Positions 19,361 to 29,913 of a stretch of 64,000 bases of DNA are shown here, in pieces. Each line of letters begins with the position of its first letter. The stretch's first letter is position 1. Source of the DNA: Escherichia phage LH01; the sequence record PP434429; one strand, 5' to 3'. The position numbers were made by a program, and so were the translations under genes. Under the pieces are notes generated by a model. It worked only from the letters and a program-made list of their open reading frames with translations. It made no database searches and was not told the DNA's origin.

Positions 19361-19390
19361 ATAGTATCACACATCCATGTGCTTGTAAAC
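19361..19390 (-). promoter_or_regulatory. early promoter GTTTAC-N18-TACTAT
   Basis: Upstream of ORF 19038..19331; -35 abuts alt stop codon; imperfect inverted repeat in spacer. Confidence 0.5.
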
Positions 19391-21477
19391 TATCCTTGAA
19401 CAAATTTAAACGGAACCGATTCCAAATCCATTAAAGATGCTAACAGTTTCAATCCTTTAGGAGCACTAGTTTTTTCTACAAATGAGGAGAACGATACCGG
19501 CTCATCTGATTCGATTTCACCCGTCATAGCAACCACCTCGCCTGTTTCCATGAGAACATCACCATCGTAAATGACAGCTTCATCCAACTGGTCTGAGGAC
19601 ATGACTTCAGCTTGAATAAATTTAAGGTTGGATTCTAAACCTGCACCAGTGTCAGATGACGCATCTGTAATTTTATTTATCTGCAAGAGAATGCCTCTAG
19701 GCAAAATAATTTCTTGCTCATTAGGGTGATTACTCAACTGTCCTGGATAAATCACGTTAACTTTATGGGCGCCATCAATAGCCCATCCAACGTTAACACG
19801 GATTTGTTCTGGTGCATGCATAGCTGTTCTTACTTGACTAGGAGAAATAGTAACACCTTCGTCATTATTGTCAATGTTAAGCTCTTTGCGAACTTCTTCA
19901 GGAGCAAGTCCAAGGGCAACGTTCTCTTTAAACCCACCGAAAATAATAGGAGCTAGTGAAGTGGAAACATAGTTTCTGAAGTAGAATACCTTATTTTTAA
20001 CCATTGCTTCGTAAATAGGCATTCTGATAGACTGAGCTCTATATAACGTTAGTCCTTCAGGTAAACGGTCTCCATTTAAAAACGCCGAATCAAGACCATC
20101 AATAGCGCGTTTAACTTCATCTTCATCTGCAACATCGTAAAAATCTGGTTTATAACGACCTAACAACATATTATTGATATCGGTATACGCAGAAGAGGCA
20201 TATTCACGAATAGCTCGTTTTTCAGCAACAGAGTATTGTTTAGGGTCCCGATTCATTGTTATATTAAAGGTGCCTCTAGCCGATTCTCGTGCATAAGTAT
20301 ACATCACATTAGACAAGAACGCTGATTTACGTTGTTTCCAAGTTCTTTCAGATACTTCAGCTAAAACATCGTCAGGCAGTTGGAAATTATCTCGTCTAAA
20401 ATCTTCAAACCATTCGTCTCTAATAGAGTCTGCAATTTCGTTTGCAGCTTCAACAAAAGCAGCTAATGCTTTAACAGATGTTGTTTTTTCAGTTTTAATT
20501 TTCTTAGCAAACTTTTCTAAAGTCGGCTTAATAACGCTACCATAAGAAACTTCATCAGCAAATTTAAAGGATTCATCAATACGATTATAAATCTTATTTT
20601 CGATATCAGCAACTAAAGTGCCTTTTGCTGTGGACGATGCTTGGGCTAGTACAATTTCATATGCTTCAGGAAGTAATTCGGCTGTAGCTGGGCCACTAAC
20701 TTCTTTAGCAGAATTTTCGTATTTCTGGAATAGCTCACCTTCTTGGCGGTCAGCTTCTAAAGATTGACTTGCTGCAATAGCGCGACGAGAAATTTTAGTA
20801 CGAGCAATAACAGGCTTATCTTTACGTTTTTCTTCTACAGCAGCAATAGAACCCGCGATAGCCGTTTCTTTGGTGACTTTTTCGCCAGTCTTTTTACTCA
20901 CATAAACTTCACCAACATCAGAATCTACTTTCGTGTACAACTCTGTGTTAATGTTAGGGATGCCTTTAATATCTTCAATGTTGGCATTTTTACGAACCAT
21001 CATCACATAGGTGTGTTTACCTGTGAATTGATACATTGCCGACAACACTTTAAAACGACCGCCAGTTTTAGTAGAAACTAAACGAGCAAGAAGAGTTTGA
21101 AGCTGCTGTCCACGTCCTTTCAATTTCTTGGTAGGGAATCGGAACAGAACTGCATCCATACGAAGAGCTTTAACCTGTTCATATACTGTATTGAAAATAG
21201 TGTTGATTGCATCAATAGGAGCAGGACCAAGGCCATTTTTCAATTCAGCGAGATTACCCTTTTCAGACAGACTCATAATAACAACATGAGCGTATTTGTC
21301 GCCAAGTTTAACTTGTTTTACAGCGTCGCCTTCGGAAAGGTAAGAGAATAAACGAACTACAATATTTGTATCGATATCACCAATTTTCCAGACTTGTGGA
21401 ACTTTAGCTTTAGGGTTCAAATTGACGACAGGAAGACTGCCTTCAGATTCAAACACTTCATTTAATTGTTCAGACAT
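19390..21477 (-). CDS. alt: Alt ADP-ribosyltransferase (packaged, modifies host RNA polymerase)
   Basis: 695 aa; ART catalytic R-S-E pattern: YRAQ, YVSTS, EQEIILPRG; position between 54 and 30 as in T4. Confidence 0.87.
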   Translation of the reverse strand: MSEQLNEVFESEGSLPVVNLNPKAKVPQVWKIGDIDTNIVVRLFSYLSEGDAVKQVKLGDKYAHVVIMSLSEKGNLAELKNGLGPAPIDAINTIFNTVYEQVKALRMDAVLFRFPTKKLKGRGQQLQTLLARLVSTKTGGRFKVLSAMYQFTGKHTYVMMVRKNANIEDIKGIPNINTELYTKVDSDVGEVYVSKKTGEKVTKETAIAGSIAAVEEKRKDKPVIARTKISRRAIAASQSLEADRQEGELFQKYENSAKEVSGPATAELLPEAYEIVLAQASSTAKGTLVADIENKIYNRIDESFKFADEVSYGSVIKPTLEKFAKKIKTEKTTSVKALAAFVEAANEIADSIRDEWFEDFRRDNFQLPDDVLAEVSERTWKQRKSAFLSNVMYTYARESARGTFNITMNRDPKQYSVAEKRAIREYASSAYTDINNMLLGRYKPDFYDVADEDEVKRAIDGLDSAFLNGDRLPEGLTLYRAQSIRMPIYEAMVKNKVFYFRNYVSTSLAPIIFGGFKENVALGLAPEEVRKELNIDNNDEGVTISPSQVRTAMHAPEQIRVNVGWAIDGAHKVNVIYPGQLSNHPNEQEIILPRGILLQINKITDASSDTGAGLESNLKFIQAEVMSSDQLDEAVIYDGDVLMETGEVVAMTGEIESDEPVSFSSFVEKTSAPKGLKLLASLMDLESVPFKFVQG

Positions 21478-23489: not shown

Positions 23490-24314
23490 TTAACAATTTA
23501 TAGACCAAGTCCATTTAGACGAATCTAAAGGAAAGTTTTGAATCGTCCACCATGGCTGCATATCGGTTGGTCCTGGGGTTCGCCAGGTATATGGAGTACG
23601 TGTTGTCGAGGGGCCGCCAATTTGATTAGGCCATGCACCTGGACTTGTTGCACCAGATTCTTTAAGCAAATCAGCCAATCGTTTTAAAAGGTCTTCACGA
23701 TCTGAATCTGAATTATTCTTAGGCAGAACCAAACGAGATTCAATATCATCCCATGTGTGTACACGTTGTGCAGTGCGAGGAATGGCATCACGTTCACCAC
23801 GAGCCAACCAATAAATTGGTACATTAAGAATTTCTGCCGCATGGTCACAGTGATGAGCTAAATCATCAACATAACAAATCACGTTATATTTTGTTTTGGC
23901 TAGTTCGAATAATTGTTCTTTTGAAGAATCATGACCACACATCATTACTTCAGAGAAAGCGCCTGGGAACAAAGCATTCAAATTAAATTGTCTATTCAAT
24001 CGAGCATCAATTGAATCACCTAGCGCCGTCACGGCTACAAAATTATAGTCTTCTTTTAGTTTATTGATAACTCGAAGAGCATCCGAATAAGGCGCTAAGT
24101 AACGAATAAAATCAGAGCGATTATATTTTTCTATTAATTGTTTACCAAGGTTATCGTCAGTATTGAACAGTTTACCAGGAGAAATAAATTTTTCGTCCTG
24201 AATCATTTTTAAAATATGTTCTAATGGAAGATTATATTTTTGGGCAAAATAAGGAAGTCCAGATTGCCAACTTAAACATACACCATCAATATCAGTCAAA
24301 ATAGTAGGCTTCAT
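23490..24314 (-). CDS. HAD-like hydrolase / putative nucleotidase
   Basis: 274 aa; N-terminal HAD motif I ILTDIDGVCL; unusual Trp/Pro-rich C-terminal 55 aa. Confidence 0.55.
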   Translation of the reverse strand: MKPTILTDIDGVCLSWQSGLPYFAQKYNLPLEHILKMIQDEKFISPGKLFNTDDNLGKQLIEKYNRSDFIRYLAPYSDALRVINKLKEDYNFVAVTALGDSIDARLNRQFNLNALFPGAFSEVMMCGHDSSKEQLFELAKTKYNVICYVDDLAHHCDHAAEILNVPIYWLARGERDAIPRTAQRVHTWDDIESRLVLPKNNSDSDREDLLKRLADLLKESGATSPGAWPNQIGGPSTTRTPYTWRTPGPTDMQPWWTIQNFPLDSSKWTWSINC

Positions 24315-24778
24315 AAAGAGTCTCTTAATAGGTTTAACACATCAACAAATTCAGTTTCGGTTAGTATTGTATCATCTTTTGTTAGGTGGCTAGCCATGCT
24401 GTGCTTCAAAATTTTTCCTTTAGAGGCTTGTAAGGCATCACGAAACCCCTTATTTTGGATCGCGGCTTCAAAATATGCATTTGTGTATAATTCTTTCCAT
24501 GCTTCAGAGTATCTTGAAAATGGAACTCCTAACCAGAAGAGAGTCCCACGGTCCTGAGCTCTTGCATAAGACCTTCCAGCTTGCTGTGCAGCCAATCCAG
24601 ACAACCCAAATATACGTCTTTGCTGTTCAACATTTTTCACCTTACATCCTTGGAGAAATCCTTCAAGACCTCCGAATTGAATACCATCCATAACAAAAGG
24701 CCATTGAGCAAAGTTACTTAATGCACATGACGGCCACTTGAAATTACTTCTTATTTCTAATTCAGACATCTTTAACAC
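24311..24778 (-). CDS. NADAR/YbiA-like (DUF1768) domain protein
   Basis: 155 aa; core LSNFAQWPFVMDGIQF parallels E. coli YbiA FSNFAAWPIKVDGKTW. Confidence 0.65.
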   Translation of the reverse strand: MLKMSELEIRSNFKWPSCALSNFAQWPFVMDGIQFGGLEGFLQGCKVKNVEQQRRIFGLSGLAAQQAGRSYARAQDRGTLFWLGVPFSRYSEAWKELYTNAYFEAAIQNKGFRDALQASKGKILKHSMASHLTKDDTILTETEFVDVLNLLRDSL

Positions 24779-24974
24779 TTATAATTTCAACATCAGCCCA
24801 ATGACCGTAACTAGGCAGACGGTCTTCAATAGATAAACCACCGTCATTTTTAAGCATTTTAATTGTCTTGATAAACGGTTCATCCTGTGGATGAATAGGC
24901 GAGCAGTCAGTCACACGATAAGTAACTTCAACCATTTCCGTGCCTAACAATTTCTGGATTAATTTATTCAACAT
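24762..24974 (-). CDS. hypothetical protein (70 aa)
   Basis: ORF in early-gene cluster; overlapping start/stop with neighbours. Confidence 0.45.
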   Translation of the reverse strand: MLNKLIQKLLGTEMVEVTYRVTDCSPIHPQDEPFIKTIKMLKNDGGLSIEDRLPSYGHWADVEIISVKDV

Positions 24975-25161: not shown

Positions 25162-25215
25162 ATTTTTCCACTTACTAAAGAAATCATTATACTCTAATCC
25201 GTCCTTGGATGTAAA

Positions 25216-25830
25216 CTACTTAACGAAATTAATTTCTACCGGATGAACAACAGGTTGAGCAGTGATATATTGAGTAATTGCTTTCATGACTAGAGCTTCA
25301 GAACCAGGATTTTTCTCAACGAATTCACGTGCTTGGTTATGAGCTTCAAGTTCACTTAGTAAACCACTTCGTTGGCATCCACGGTCTTGAGTACCCTGTT
25401 CAGATAAAAAGACGACGATGTATTTTTCATCGTCATAAGGTTTAGACGGTTGAGCAAATGTTCCTTTACTTCCAAAAGGAGAGTTATGACGCCACATCAC
25501 GCCGTGAGGAGTTTCAACCTTCGTATATTCGTGCGGTCCATTTTTCTTAATTTCTTGATGTGGAACTTCATAGACCTTAGGGTTAGGACATTCAATAAAA
25601 TGCTCATCTAAATCAGTCGAGAATATTAAAGTAAAACAATTACTGAATTTACCGACACCTGCCTGATAAATTTTACCTTCAGAAGTTCTAATTTCACAAA
25701 CTGAGCCGGCATCAGTAACTTCTAAAACTTCAAAAGGCTCGATAAGGTCATATGAGAACATGTTTTTAAGGCGTGGAGTAATATCCCCATTTTTAAAATT
25801 CATTTTATAAAAAGTATTAACTTTAAACAT
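25216..25830 (-). CDS. hypothetical protein (204 aa from ATG at 25830)
   Basis: GAGGAAATT RBS before MFKVNTFYK...; track ORF start at 25860 would read through an upstream hairpin. Confidence 0.55.
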   Translation of the reverse strand: MFKVNTFYKMNFKNGDITPRLKNMFSYDLIEPFEVLEVTDAGSVCEIRTSEGKIYQAGVGKFSNCFTLIFSTDLDEHFIECPNPKVYEVPHQEIKKNGPHEYTKVETPHGVMWRHNSPFGSKGTFAQPSKPYDDEKYIVVFLSEQGTQDRGCQRSGLLSELEAHNQAREFVEKNPGSEALVMKAITQYITAQPVVHPVEINFVK

Positions 25831-25865
25831 AATTTCCTCAGTGGGAGCTTCGGCTCCCAATTAAT

Positions 25866-28041: not shown

Positions 28042-28350
28042 TTACATAAGAAGCAAACGTTCTACCGGAGTACCATCAACCGAAATTACTTTATCAAGGC
28101 GGAAAGAACGCCACTGGCCTAACTTGGTATCGAATGCTCGAACTGATTCACGAGGTTCATAACGAACTTCTGTTGCCGGATTGTTATTTTCATATTTGAC
28201 TTCAAGTTCATCGCGCGAAGCAAACATAGTGCGTACATCACCGTTAGCCTTTTCAAATACAACACAATGAACGCCTACAGACAGAATAGTTTTAATACGT
28301 TCACGAAGAACCATAGTTTCTCGTTCAGTTAAAATCATATTATTCACCAC
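28042..28350 (-). CDS. hypothetical protein (102 aa, 31.1-like position)
   Basis: ORF overlapping cd start. Confidence 0.5.
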   Translation of the reverse strand: MVNNMILTERETMVLRERIKTILSVGVHCVVFEKANGDVRTMFASRDELEVKYENNNPATEVRYEPRESVRAFDTKLGQWRSFRLDKVISVDGTPVERLLLM

Positions 28351-28921
28351 AAAAGTTTCGGATTTGTTCCCAATTCAGAGAACGAAGATTATTACGAGAG
28401 TACTGAATTACTTCAATACCAGCTTGTTTAAGAATGTCTGCCCAGTTTTCAGGAGATCTGTCGTATAATTCTGCGTATACGACCTTTTTAATACCTGACT
28501 GCGTAATAGCTTTAGTGCAATCAGGACATGGAGAAAGCGTCGTATATAACGTAGCACCTTCAATAGAATTACCTTTACGAGCGGCAAACAAAATTGCGTT
28601 CAATTCTGCATGGATTTCATTATTAGCAGACCATGCACTATGAGCAGCTCGATGTTCTTTGGCTAAAACAAAATTATCTACCCGTCCAAATGCTGTAGTG
28701 CCTTCTTTATGTCCAGCAACGATGACTGGGATTGGTTTATTCTTCAACCAACCATTTTCAGATGCATGTTCGCAACAGTTAACGCCACCTGCAGGTGAAC
28801 CGTTATATCCAGTAGAGATAATGCGTCCATCTTTTTCAATGACGGCACCAACTTTCCATGAACAACATTTTGATTCTTGAGAAATCAGATATGCAATCTG
28901 AAGGTATGTGCTAGCTTTCAT
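28340..28921 (-). CDS. cd: dCMP deaminase
   Basis: 193 aa; zinc-binding motifs HAELNAI and SPCPDCTKAI; size as T4 Cd. Confidence 0.92.
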   Translation of the reverse strand: MKASTYLQIAYLISQESKCCSWKVGAVIEKDGRIISTGYNGSPAGGVNCCEHASENGWLKNKPIPVIVAGHKEGTTAFGRVDNFVLAKEHRAAHSAWSANNEIHAELNAILFAARKGNSIEGATLYTTLSPCPDCTKAITQSGIKKVVYAELYDRSPENWADILKQAGIEVIQYSRNNLRSLNWEQIRNFCGE

Positions 28922-29913
28922 TATTGAACCTTATTAATATAAGTTAACAGCTCTTTAGTTTGTTCCCAACTGATGCACGCATCGGTAACGGAAACGCCAT
29001 AGGACATATTATCAGAAATTTTTTGATTTCCTTCATGTAGGAACGATTCTATCATAATTCCTTTGACCAAATCATTAGCTGCTAATTTTTTACCAATACC
29101 AATTTGATTGCTATAATGCCCATCAGCGTTTGCATGGCTACAGTCAACCATTACATAATGATTCAGACCTACTGCCCTTGCTTTGTTAGAAGCTTCTTGA
29201 ATATCAGAAGAATGATAGTTCGGGCCGTTGGTCCCGCCACGCAATACGATATGCGTATTCTGATTACCTTCAGCTTCAACAATGCCTACAGTACCATCGA
29301 CGTCCATACCCATATACCGATGAGGCCAGGCGGCACTATACATCGCGTCTGTAGCTACTTTAATAGAACCATTGGTTGCGTTCTTGAAGCCTACGCACAT
29401 CGGTAGACCTGAAGCAATTTCACGATGTGTCTGACTTTCAGTCGTACGTGCGCCAATAGCAACCCATGAGAAAATACCAGAAAGATACTTAATCGTGAAT
29501 GGGTCTAATACTTCAGTTGCTAATGGAAGTCCCATACGTAGAAGTTTACGACACAATGTTCGTGCAACTATAAGACCGTGGTTCATATCAAAACTTCCGT
29601 CAAGATATGGATCATTTACAAGACCTTTCCAACCTACGGTAGTTCGAGGCTTTTCAAAATAAACGCGCATCACTAACAGAACATTAGGAAGACGAGTTTG
29701 AAGTTCAGCCAGACGTTTGCCGTATTCAACAGCAGCAATAGGGTCATGAATTGAACAAGGACCTACAACAATAAGTTTGCGTGGGTCTTCACCGTTCATA
29801 ATCGAATTAACTTGTTCGCGATGAGAAGCCACTTGTGATGCGTAAGCTTCCGACAAAGGAATAATCTCAGCCAGTTCTTTTGGAGAAATAAGTTTTCCGA
29901 CGACAGGTAACAT
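28921..29913 (-). CDS. 3-deoxy-D-arabino-heptulosonate-7-phosphate (DAHP) synthase, class I (AroG/F/H-like)
   Basis: 330 aa; motifs VVGPCSIHD, RVYFEKPRTTVGWKGL, IGARTTESQTHRE, MVDCSHAN, ESFLHEGNQ, VTDACISW align with E. coli AroG; stop/start overlap with cd. Confidence 0.9.
   Translation of the reverse strand: MLPVVGKLISPKELAEIIPLSEAYASQVASHREQVNSIMNGEDPRKLIVVGPCSIHDPIAAVEYGKRLAELQTRLPNVLLVMRVYFEKPRTTVGWKGLVNDPYLDGSFDMNHGLIVARTLCRKLLRMGLPLATEVLDPFTIKYLSGIFSWVAIGARTTESQTHREIASGLPMCVGFKNATNGSIKVATDAMYSAAWPHRYMGMDVDGTVGIVEAEGNQNTHIVLRGGTNGPNYHSSDIQEASNKARAVGLNHYVMVDCSHANADGHYSNQIGIGKKLAANDLVKGIMIESFLHEGNQKISDNMSYGVSVTDACISWEQTKELLTYINKVQ

Follow-up and report, generated by a model that had tools for sequence, protein, structure and literature searches.

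An intact orthologue of the T4 anti-DarT gene adfN in Escherichia phage LH01

Phage LH01 encodes an orthologue of T4 gene 30.3

We analysed a 64,000-nucleotide stretch of Escherichia phage LH01 (sequence record PP434429; the window denotes this whole stretch) and conclude with high confidence that a short minus-strand gene within it is the orthologue of T4 gene 30.3 (adfN) in a Mosigvirus T-even phage, encoding a minimal, core-only NADAR-fold enzyme that counters the toxin DarT1. The encoded protein is orthologous to T4 gp30.3, adopts a NADAR fold and retains the catalytic residues, and its gene is an unbroken frame that has evolved under purifying selection. AdfN function has already been published for the T4 protein (2024–2025), and the window gene adds one more intact, ordinary copy to that characterised family. 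What the finding chiefly confirms is that a reading of the DNA letters by themselves reached the right answer: a preliminary description had proposed a NADAR/YbiA-like protein that reverses ADP-ribosylation or counters host defence, a role experimentally established for the 95%-identical T4 orthologue (PMC11825919) and assigned to LH01 by homology.

The open reading frame named in the preliminary description, 24311-24778 on the minus strand, is real and unbroken and comprises 155 amino acids when counted from its GTG, but that start codon gave way on comparison. In a DNA alignment of the window, T4, RB69 and phage 348Ecol098PP, the GTG at 24778 reads GCA in T4, while an ATG at 24769 is kept in T4, RB69 and 348Ecol098PP. 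Initiation at this ATG yields a protein of 152 amino acids, the length of the annotated T4 gp30.3, and an 8-nucleotide overlap with gene 30.4 as in the T4 annotation. Because the ATG is conserved and gives both the T4-like length and the T4-like overlap, the gene is best placed at 24311..24769, and the ATG at 24769 rather than the GTG at 24778 is the most likely adfN start.

24311..24769, minus strand: adfN / gene 30.3 coding sequence, 152 amino acids, TGA stop at 24313..24311; phage-type NADAR, predicted by orthology to be a DNA guanine ADP-ribosylglycohydrolase

The window protein is 95% identical to T4 gp30.3 across all 152 residues with zero gaps, differs from it by seven conservative or surface-type substitutions (K11R, E89P, I120V, M125I, H128G, T139A and V142I), none of them near E36, K43 or H123, and is 100% identical to a protein of phage p000v. 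Pfam Phage_30_3 (PF08010) matches over 138/138 model positions (E=4.9e-69), and a PHROGs search returned just phrog_652, 'unknown function'. By tblastn, gene 30.3 is present at a coverage of at least 80% in 1503 of 50,697 phage records, carried by phages that infect Escherichia, Klebsiella, Aeromonas, Acinetobacter, Vibrio and other hosts, and an exhaustive profile search of 1.84 billion representatives gathered 1378 clusters at 50% identity (E<=1e-3). In nearly all of these ~1,500 records the gene is labelled 'hypothetical protein', and replacing this annotation by adfN is the main use of the result. Relative to T4, gene 30.3 has a nonsynonymous substitution rate (dN) of 0.034 and a synonymous rate (dS) of 0.57 (dN/dS ~0.06); these rates and the wide occurrence of the gene mark adfN as a genuine gene that purifying selection maintains.

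The protein belongs to the phage branch of the NADAR superfamily

A profile of 74 family members searched against PDB sequences had E. coli YbiA (2b3w) as its sole significant match (E=7.7e-4), hhalign joined the family profile to YbiA over 133 columns, nearly full length, with a probability of 95% (E=3.5e-8), and pairwise BLASTP of the window protein against YbiA gave E=8e-6. Among 67 multidomain relatives, 10 matched both PF08010 and the Pfam NADAR/DUF1768 model PF08719. An AlphaFold model computed on the family alignment (predicted local distance difference test, pLDDT, 95.5; predicted template-modelling score, pTM, 0.90) is very confident; the NADAR fold is defined by an alpha-helical core with small flanking beta-sheets. 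Foldseek comparison of this model with the PDB ranked E. coli YbiA (2b3w), Phytophthora PnNADAR in complex with ADP-ribose (8bau) and Geobacter GlNADAR (8bat) as the top three matches at probabilities of 0.98-1.00, and these three solved NADARs are the sole credible matches, every other probability being <=0.05. YbiA is the best structural match (Foldseek E=6.2e-5, template-modelling score 0.68) as well as the best profile match.

The active-site Glu and Lys are present as E36 and K43 within an E-x(2)-(F/L)-Q-x(2)-K segment, and YbiA and the window protein share the motif SNFA..P...DG....E..(F/L)Q..K. The strings on which the preliminary description had based its reading are also accurate: the quoted NADAR core, LSNFAQWPFVMDGIQF, occurs in the window protein, and the quoted YbiA string, FSNFAAWPIKVDGKTW, agrees exactly with the product of E. 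coli K-12 ybiA. A PF08010 match combined with His at the last-strand position characterises phage NADARs of the gp30.3/AdfN type, and both are found here. On profile, profile–profile, fold and conserved-residue evidence, the protein is a member of the NADAR superfamily and of its phage branch; the NADAR half of the original 'NADAR/YbiA-like' label therefore stands, but the branch is that of the His-type phage NADARs and not of the Glu-type YbiA proteins.

Active-site residues and the C-terminal helix are retained

The NADAR catalytic residues E36, K43 and H123 are conserved on alignment, in keeping with the family originally proposed. In the alignment of 74 family sequences, N19, E36, H123 and T137 never vary, and conservation of K43 reaches at least 90%.

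24662..24664, minus strand: Glu36 codon (GAA); active-site residue, invariant, aligned with YbiA E48
24641..24643, minus strand: Lys43 codon (AAG); active-site residue, at least 90% conserved
24401..24403, minus strand: His123 codon (CAC); last beta-strand, invariant, diagnostic of phage NADARs
24314..24358, minus strand: C-terminal alpha-helix, residues 138-152; helix 138-151 in the high-confidence model, intact in LH01

In both the profile search and the hhalign alignment, YbiA SEHYFQAQK is paired with the stretch that holds E36 and K43. E36 is among the residues that contact ADP-ribose in the PnNADAR structure, the T4 E36A variant is impaired in rescue and is listed in the methods for the ADP-ribose glycohydrolase assay, and T4 K43A rescues RB69 only partially (PMC11825919). 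In the AlphaFold model, H123 belongs to the last strand, modelled at residues 120-122. The residue at this last-strand position is Glu in YbiA-type, Asp in DarG1-type and His in phage gp30.3 NADARs (PMC11543638, PMC11125620, PMC12945103).

Published AdfN function and a proposed mechanism

T-even resistance to DarTG1 was mapped to gene 30.3, which was renamed adfN for anti-DarT factor NADAR (Johannesman et al., PMC11825919). The gene is required for this resistance and suffices to confer it: T4 or T2 without adfN forms no plaques on DarTG1 cells, and ectopic adfN fully rescues RB69 (PMC11825919). Purified AdfN strips ADP-ribose from DarT1-modified DNA and a catalytically inactive variant does not, T4 AdfN is impaired by the E36A or K43A substitution and by truncation of its C-terminus, and AdfN has no effect on DarTG2 defence (PMC11825919). 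In vitro, T4 gp30.3 hydrolyses ADP-ribosylated guanine (G-ADPr) but not the thymine or cytosine adducts T-ADPr and C-ADPr (PMC11125620, PMC12945103). At 95% identity to this protein, the LH01 copy would be expected to share its activity, its guanine specificity and its DarTG1 phenotype, as we infer by homology.

In the mechanism that we propose, infection of a cell carrying the DarTG1 toxin–antitoxin system would lead DarT1 to ADP-ribosylate guanine in phage DNA and so block replication. AdfN would then hydrolyse the N-glycosidic bond that joins ADP-ribose to the amino group of guanine, restoring guanine and releasing ADP-ribose so that the phage could replicate, and would in effect behave as an orphan antitoxin. 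The active site would be made up of Glu36, Lys43 and the His123 peculiar to phage NADARs, and full activity would need the C-terminal helix.

This orphan role can be set against DarG1 of the BC4488 family (8bat, Geobacter lovleyi), which has the same fold and shares guanine de-ADP-ribosylation of DNA with the T4 orthologue; the T4-type NADAR cluster is reported to be closest to DarG1 NADARs (PMC11825919). DarG1 is a protein of 219 amino acids with an N-terminal extension and a catalytic Asp and is paired with a DarT1 toxin gene, whereas the window protein has 152 amino acids, no extension and a His, and its gene is not adjacent to a toxin gene. The role of DarG1 in uninfected cells is not replaceable by the T4 protein (PMC11825919, PMC11125620). 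Assignment as a DarG1/BC4488 antitoxin, which calls for the Asp, the N-terminal extension and a neighbouring DarT1, was rejected for LH01, where a His, a core of only 152 amino acids and no adjoining ADP-ribosyltransferase gene are found; the immediate neighbours of 30.3 are the phage genes 30.2 and 30.4, and PADLOC models gave no match to the window protein.

Several observations weigh against reading the gene as a NADAR that counters DarT1. Some concern family membership: PF08719, the Pfam model for NADAR, fails to match the protein even at E<=10, and NCBIfam, PADLOC and phmmer searches against the PDB gave no match to it. Because direct hidden Markov model (HMM) searches found nothing, membership had to be established by profile, profile–profile and fold methods; the HMM confirmation of the NADAR fold envisaged in the preliminary description accordingly failed with PF08719 itself and succeeded with the family profile and hhalign. 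Others concern function: AdfN-T4 fails to detoxify DarT1 in uninfected E. coli (PMC11825919, PMC11125620), it rescues non-T-even phages just partly, so that a further T-even factor has been postulated (PMC11825919, PMC11125620), and in vivo the E36A and K43A mutants are still partly active (PMC11825919).

The natural substrate may be broader or different, a reading held only tentatively and as an additional rather than exclusive role: the enzyme may act on guanine ADP-ribosylated in RNA or nucleotides, or by defence toxins other than DarT1. As summarised in a passage of PMC12945103 that cites PMC11833690, removal of G-ADPr from both RNA and DNA is reported for each of the four NADAR families. 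The family is also very large and occurs in phages of many hosts, and its metagenomic members include fusions to nucleic-acid-related domains (Tpt1/KptA, ASCH, HD_4 and NT5C). Against such breadth, the T4 NADAR removes neither T-ADPr nor C-ADPr (PMC11125620, PMC12945103), T4 AdfN leaves DarTG2 defence unaffected (PMC11825919), and no target besides DarT1-type modification has been demonstrated.

Fusions of this kind extend beyond the domains just named. Among metagenomic relatives (P0021-P0165), gp30.3-type domains are joined to NT5C, Tpt1/KptA RNA 2'-phosphotransferase, ASCH, HD_4, LRR and GDSL-lipase domains, which hints, at the level of domain architecture, at a wider nucleic-acid or nucleotide ADP-ribose biology in the phage NADAR branch. 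Tandemly duplicated gp30.3-type NADAR domains also occur, for example in P0021, P0023 and P0025.

adfN is intact in LH01 and inactivated in RB69

The genes around adfN mark the phage as RB69-like and a member of Mosigvirus: its DNA ligase is 99% identical to that of RB69 and 67% identical to that of T4, its gp30.2 is 98% identical to that of RB69, and a phage assigned to Mosigvirus is among the closest full records. The window protein and T4 AdfN share gene neighbourhood, E36/K43/H123, the C-terminal helix and the core-only fold, but T4 AdfN is encoded in a Tequatrovirus genome and the window copy in a Mosigvirus.

RB69 itself is DarTG1-sensitive and has a disabled adfN, in which a single T inserted at gene nucleotide 411 removes the last 15 residues of the protein (PMC11825919). 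RB69 gp30.3 is 97% identical to the window protein over its 137 retained residues and lies in a near-identical genome region, but the window gene keeps the terminal residues that RB69 has lost. In the DNA alignment, the extra T at gene nucleotide 411 (window position 24359) occurs in RB69 only, and the window frame runs on to the same stop as that of T4. The segment missing from RB69 corresponds to the terminal helix 138-151 of the AlphaFold model, and cutting the T4 protein short at the RB69 position lowers its activity (PMC11825919). Bas46 and Bas47, the closest relatives of RB69, are DarTG1-resistant, as are phages with full-length versions of the gene (PMC11825919).

Since the RB69-type insertion is absent and the substitutions avoid the conserved residues, we predict from sequence that the window adfN is functional and LH01 DarTG1-resistant; an RB69-like phage would in this case, unlike RB69, escape DarTG1. 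It is highly improbable that the window copy is inactive like that of its close relative. The RB69-like flanks (ligase and gp30.2) around a gene disabled in RB69 (PMC11825919) would favour inactivity, as would the truncated or split 30.3 of some other phage records (P0007, P0012 and P0015), but the LH01 frame lacks the single-T insertion and reaches the T4 stop, the window protein has all conserved residues, and Bas46, Bas47 and other phages with full-length adfN resist DarTG1 (PMC11825919).

Neither the alt gene nor YbiA chemistry is likely to account for AdfN

The minus strand of the window carries alt, alt.1, DNA ligase gene 30, 30.1, 30.2, 30.3, 30.4, 30.5, 30.7 and 30.8 in T-even order, and the order alt - 30 - 30.1 - 30.2 - 30.3 - 30.4 is common to the window, T4 and RB69.

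19390..21477, minus strand: alt; PF03496 ADP-ribosyltransferase domain (E=6.6e-28), 3 kb from adfN

The preliminary description had linked the NADAR gene to Alt and to a HAD-like hydrolase in the same segment. Both genes are indeed nearby, but for the functional link to Alt nothing beyond synteny was found. A role for AdfN in balancing the phage ADP-ribosyltransferases Alt, ModA and ModB on host proteins, or in handling metabolites of nicotinamide adenine dinucleotide (NAD) and ADP-ribose, is disfavoured as very improbable. The same-strand position of alt and the conservation of the alt - 30 - 30.x order in T4 and RB69 are what speak for it, but this proximity is ordinary T-even synteny, and alt, ligase or 30.2 lies nearby in just a minority of 67 divergent loci with gp30.3 homologues. 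Alt moreover modifies protein arginine (annotated in the 348Ecol098PP record as NAD(+)--arginine ADP-ribosyltransferase), the described NADAR activities all act on nucleobase-linked ADP-ribose (PMC11543638, PMC12945103), and the adfN deletion phenotype is confined to DarTG1 hosts (PMC11825919). The Alt link is unsupported because the neighbourhood does not recur, Alt is arginine-specific and NADAR activities are base-linked. In the surroundings of 80 viral loci with gp30.3 homologues, ligase, 30.2 and 30.3 recur as a T4-like block and no other partner gene does, and a general operon-level partner was rejected together with the Alt link for this lack of recurrence.

It is extremely improbable, and likewise disfavoured, that the protein is a YbiA-type housekeeping N-glycosidase destroying reactive riboflavin-pathway intermediates: YbiA is its best PDB match and the gene is labelled 'ybiA-like protein' in one phage record, but the last-strand Glu that defines YbiA is an invariant His in the gp30.3 family (PMC11125620), identity to YbiA is just about 18-24%, no riboflavin-synthesis genes were seen among the neighbours, and the demonstrated role of the T4 protein is anti-DarTG1 (PMC11825919). 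Membership of the YbiA family sensu stricto was rejected on the same residue, the required last-strand Glu being replaced by His123; YbiA is a chromosomal housekeeping enzyme with the family Glu, and the LH01 protein falls outside the reach of the Pfam NADAR model.

An island of high identity to T4 surrounds adfN

adfN sits in an island of about 630 nucleotides (~24180..24810) that spans the whole of 30.3, the last ~50 nucleotides of 30.4 and the first ~135 nucleotides of 30.2 and is 85-95% identical to T4 at the nucleotide level; the surroundings are 35-75% identical. Synonymous divergence from T4 follows the same pattern, with a dS of 0.57 for 30.3 and 0.78 for 30.7, and values from 1.5 to saturation for ligase, 30.1, 30.2, 30.4, 30.5, 30.8 and alt. 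These local differences suggest either a recent recombinational exchange of adfN, together with 30.7, between Tequatrovirus and Mosigvirus or an unusual constraint at the nucleotide level.

gp30.2 as a candidate helper factor

The HAD-like hydrolase of the preliminary description is the product of gene 30.2.

23490..24314, minus strand: gene 30.2, HAD-fold phosphatase-like protein of 274 amino acids; its ATG overlaps the adfN stop (ATGA); listed for context

All four HAD motifs are conserved across the gp30.2 family (D8xD10, T96, K132 and D150D151), and the Pfam HAD_2 match is sub-threshold (E=0.02). An AlphaFold model of gp30.2 (pLDDT 84.6; tail disordered beyond residue ~222) gave 122 HAD-superfamily PDB matches at E<=1e-3, its PDB matches all belonging to this superfamily and 5'(3')-deoxyribonucleotidases being among those of lowest root-mean-square deviation. 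A gp30.2 profile found nothing significant among PDB sequences, the HAD superfamily placement coming from the structure search only. The C-terminal ~70 residues (23490..23700, minus strand) are rich in Pro, Trp and Thr and predicted to be disordered (pLDDT <50); this tail is highly variable among T-even phages and missing from divergent homologues of about 200-212 amino acids.

We consider it unlikely that gp30.2 is the postulated T-even helper factor of AdfN; were it so, the overlapping HAD-like gene would supply the helper that AdfN-T4 requires. Several hints point in this direction. gp30.2 is itself a HAD-fold protein resembling 5'(3')-deoxyribonucleotidases, with every catalytic motif kept. 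The 30.2 start overlaps the adfN stop (ATGA) both here and in many T4-like phages, the first ~135 nucleotides of 30.2 belong to the adfN-centred island, in at least one metagenomic protein (P0090) a HAD domain of NT5C type is joined to a NADAR domain of gp30.3 type, and 30.2 and 30.3 are nearly alike in their distribution over phage genera. Shared ancestry within Straboviridae explains these hints equally well. Against a helper role, just 12 of the 67 divergent loci have 30.2 within 3.5 kb of 30.3, in each case with ligase present too. Comparison of gp30.2 with the NT5C domain of P0090 gave a BLASTP E value of 1.2 and an hhalign probability of 21% over the motif I region only, so that homology of the two is not demonstrable past motif I.

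Other features of the adfN region

Genes 30.5-30.4-30.3-30.2-30.1-30 form a tightly packed, overlapping run, and the gap upstream of this run contains the best promoter match in the region.

25186..25215, minus strand: candidate sigma-70-type promoter, TTTACA-18-TATAAT, 11/12

Promoter-like sites are in total no more numerous in the region than the shuffled expectation, so this site is a candidate only. At 25216..25860 on the minus strand, where T4 and RB69 have 30.6, the window carries a 214-amino-acid open reading frame that matches phrog_17531 (E=2.5e-146), has no Pfam match and is present in just 2 of 83 related loci examined. The internal, out-of-frame gene 30.3' annotated in T4 (75 amino acids) is cut by stop codons to 34 amino acids in LH01 (24529..24633, minus strand); it is therefore not conserved and, on this comparison, probably not a real gene. 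Farther along, a 330-amino-acid class I DAHP synthase (28921..29913, minus strand; PF00793, E=4.5e-75) directly follows the dCMP deaminase gene cd (28340..28921). This enzyme of the aromatic-amino-acid pathway, unusual for a T-even phage, is shared with phage 348Ecol098PP and lacking at that position in T4 and RB69.

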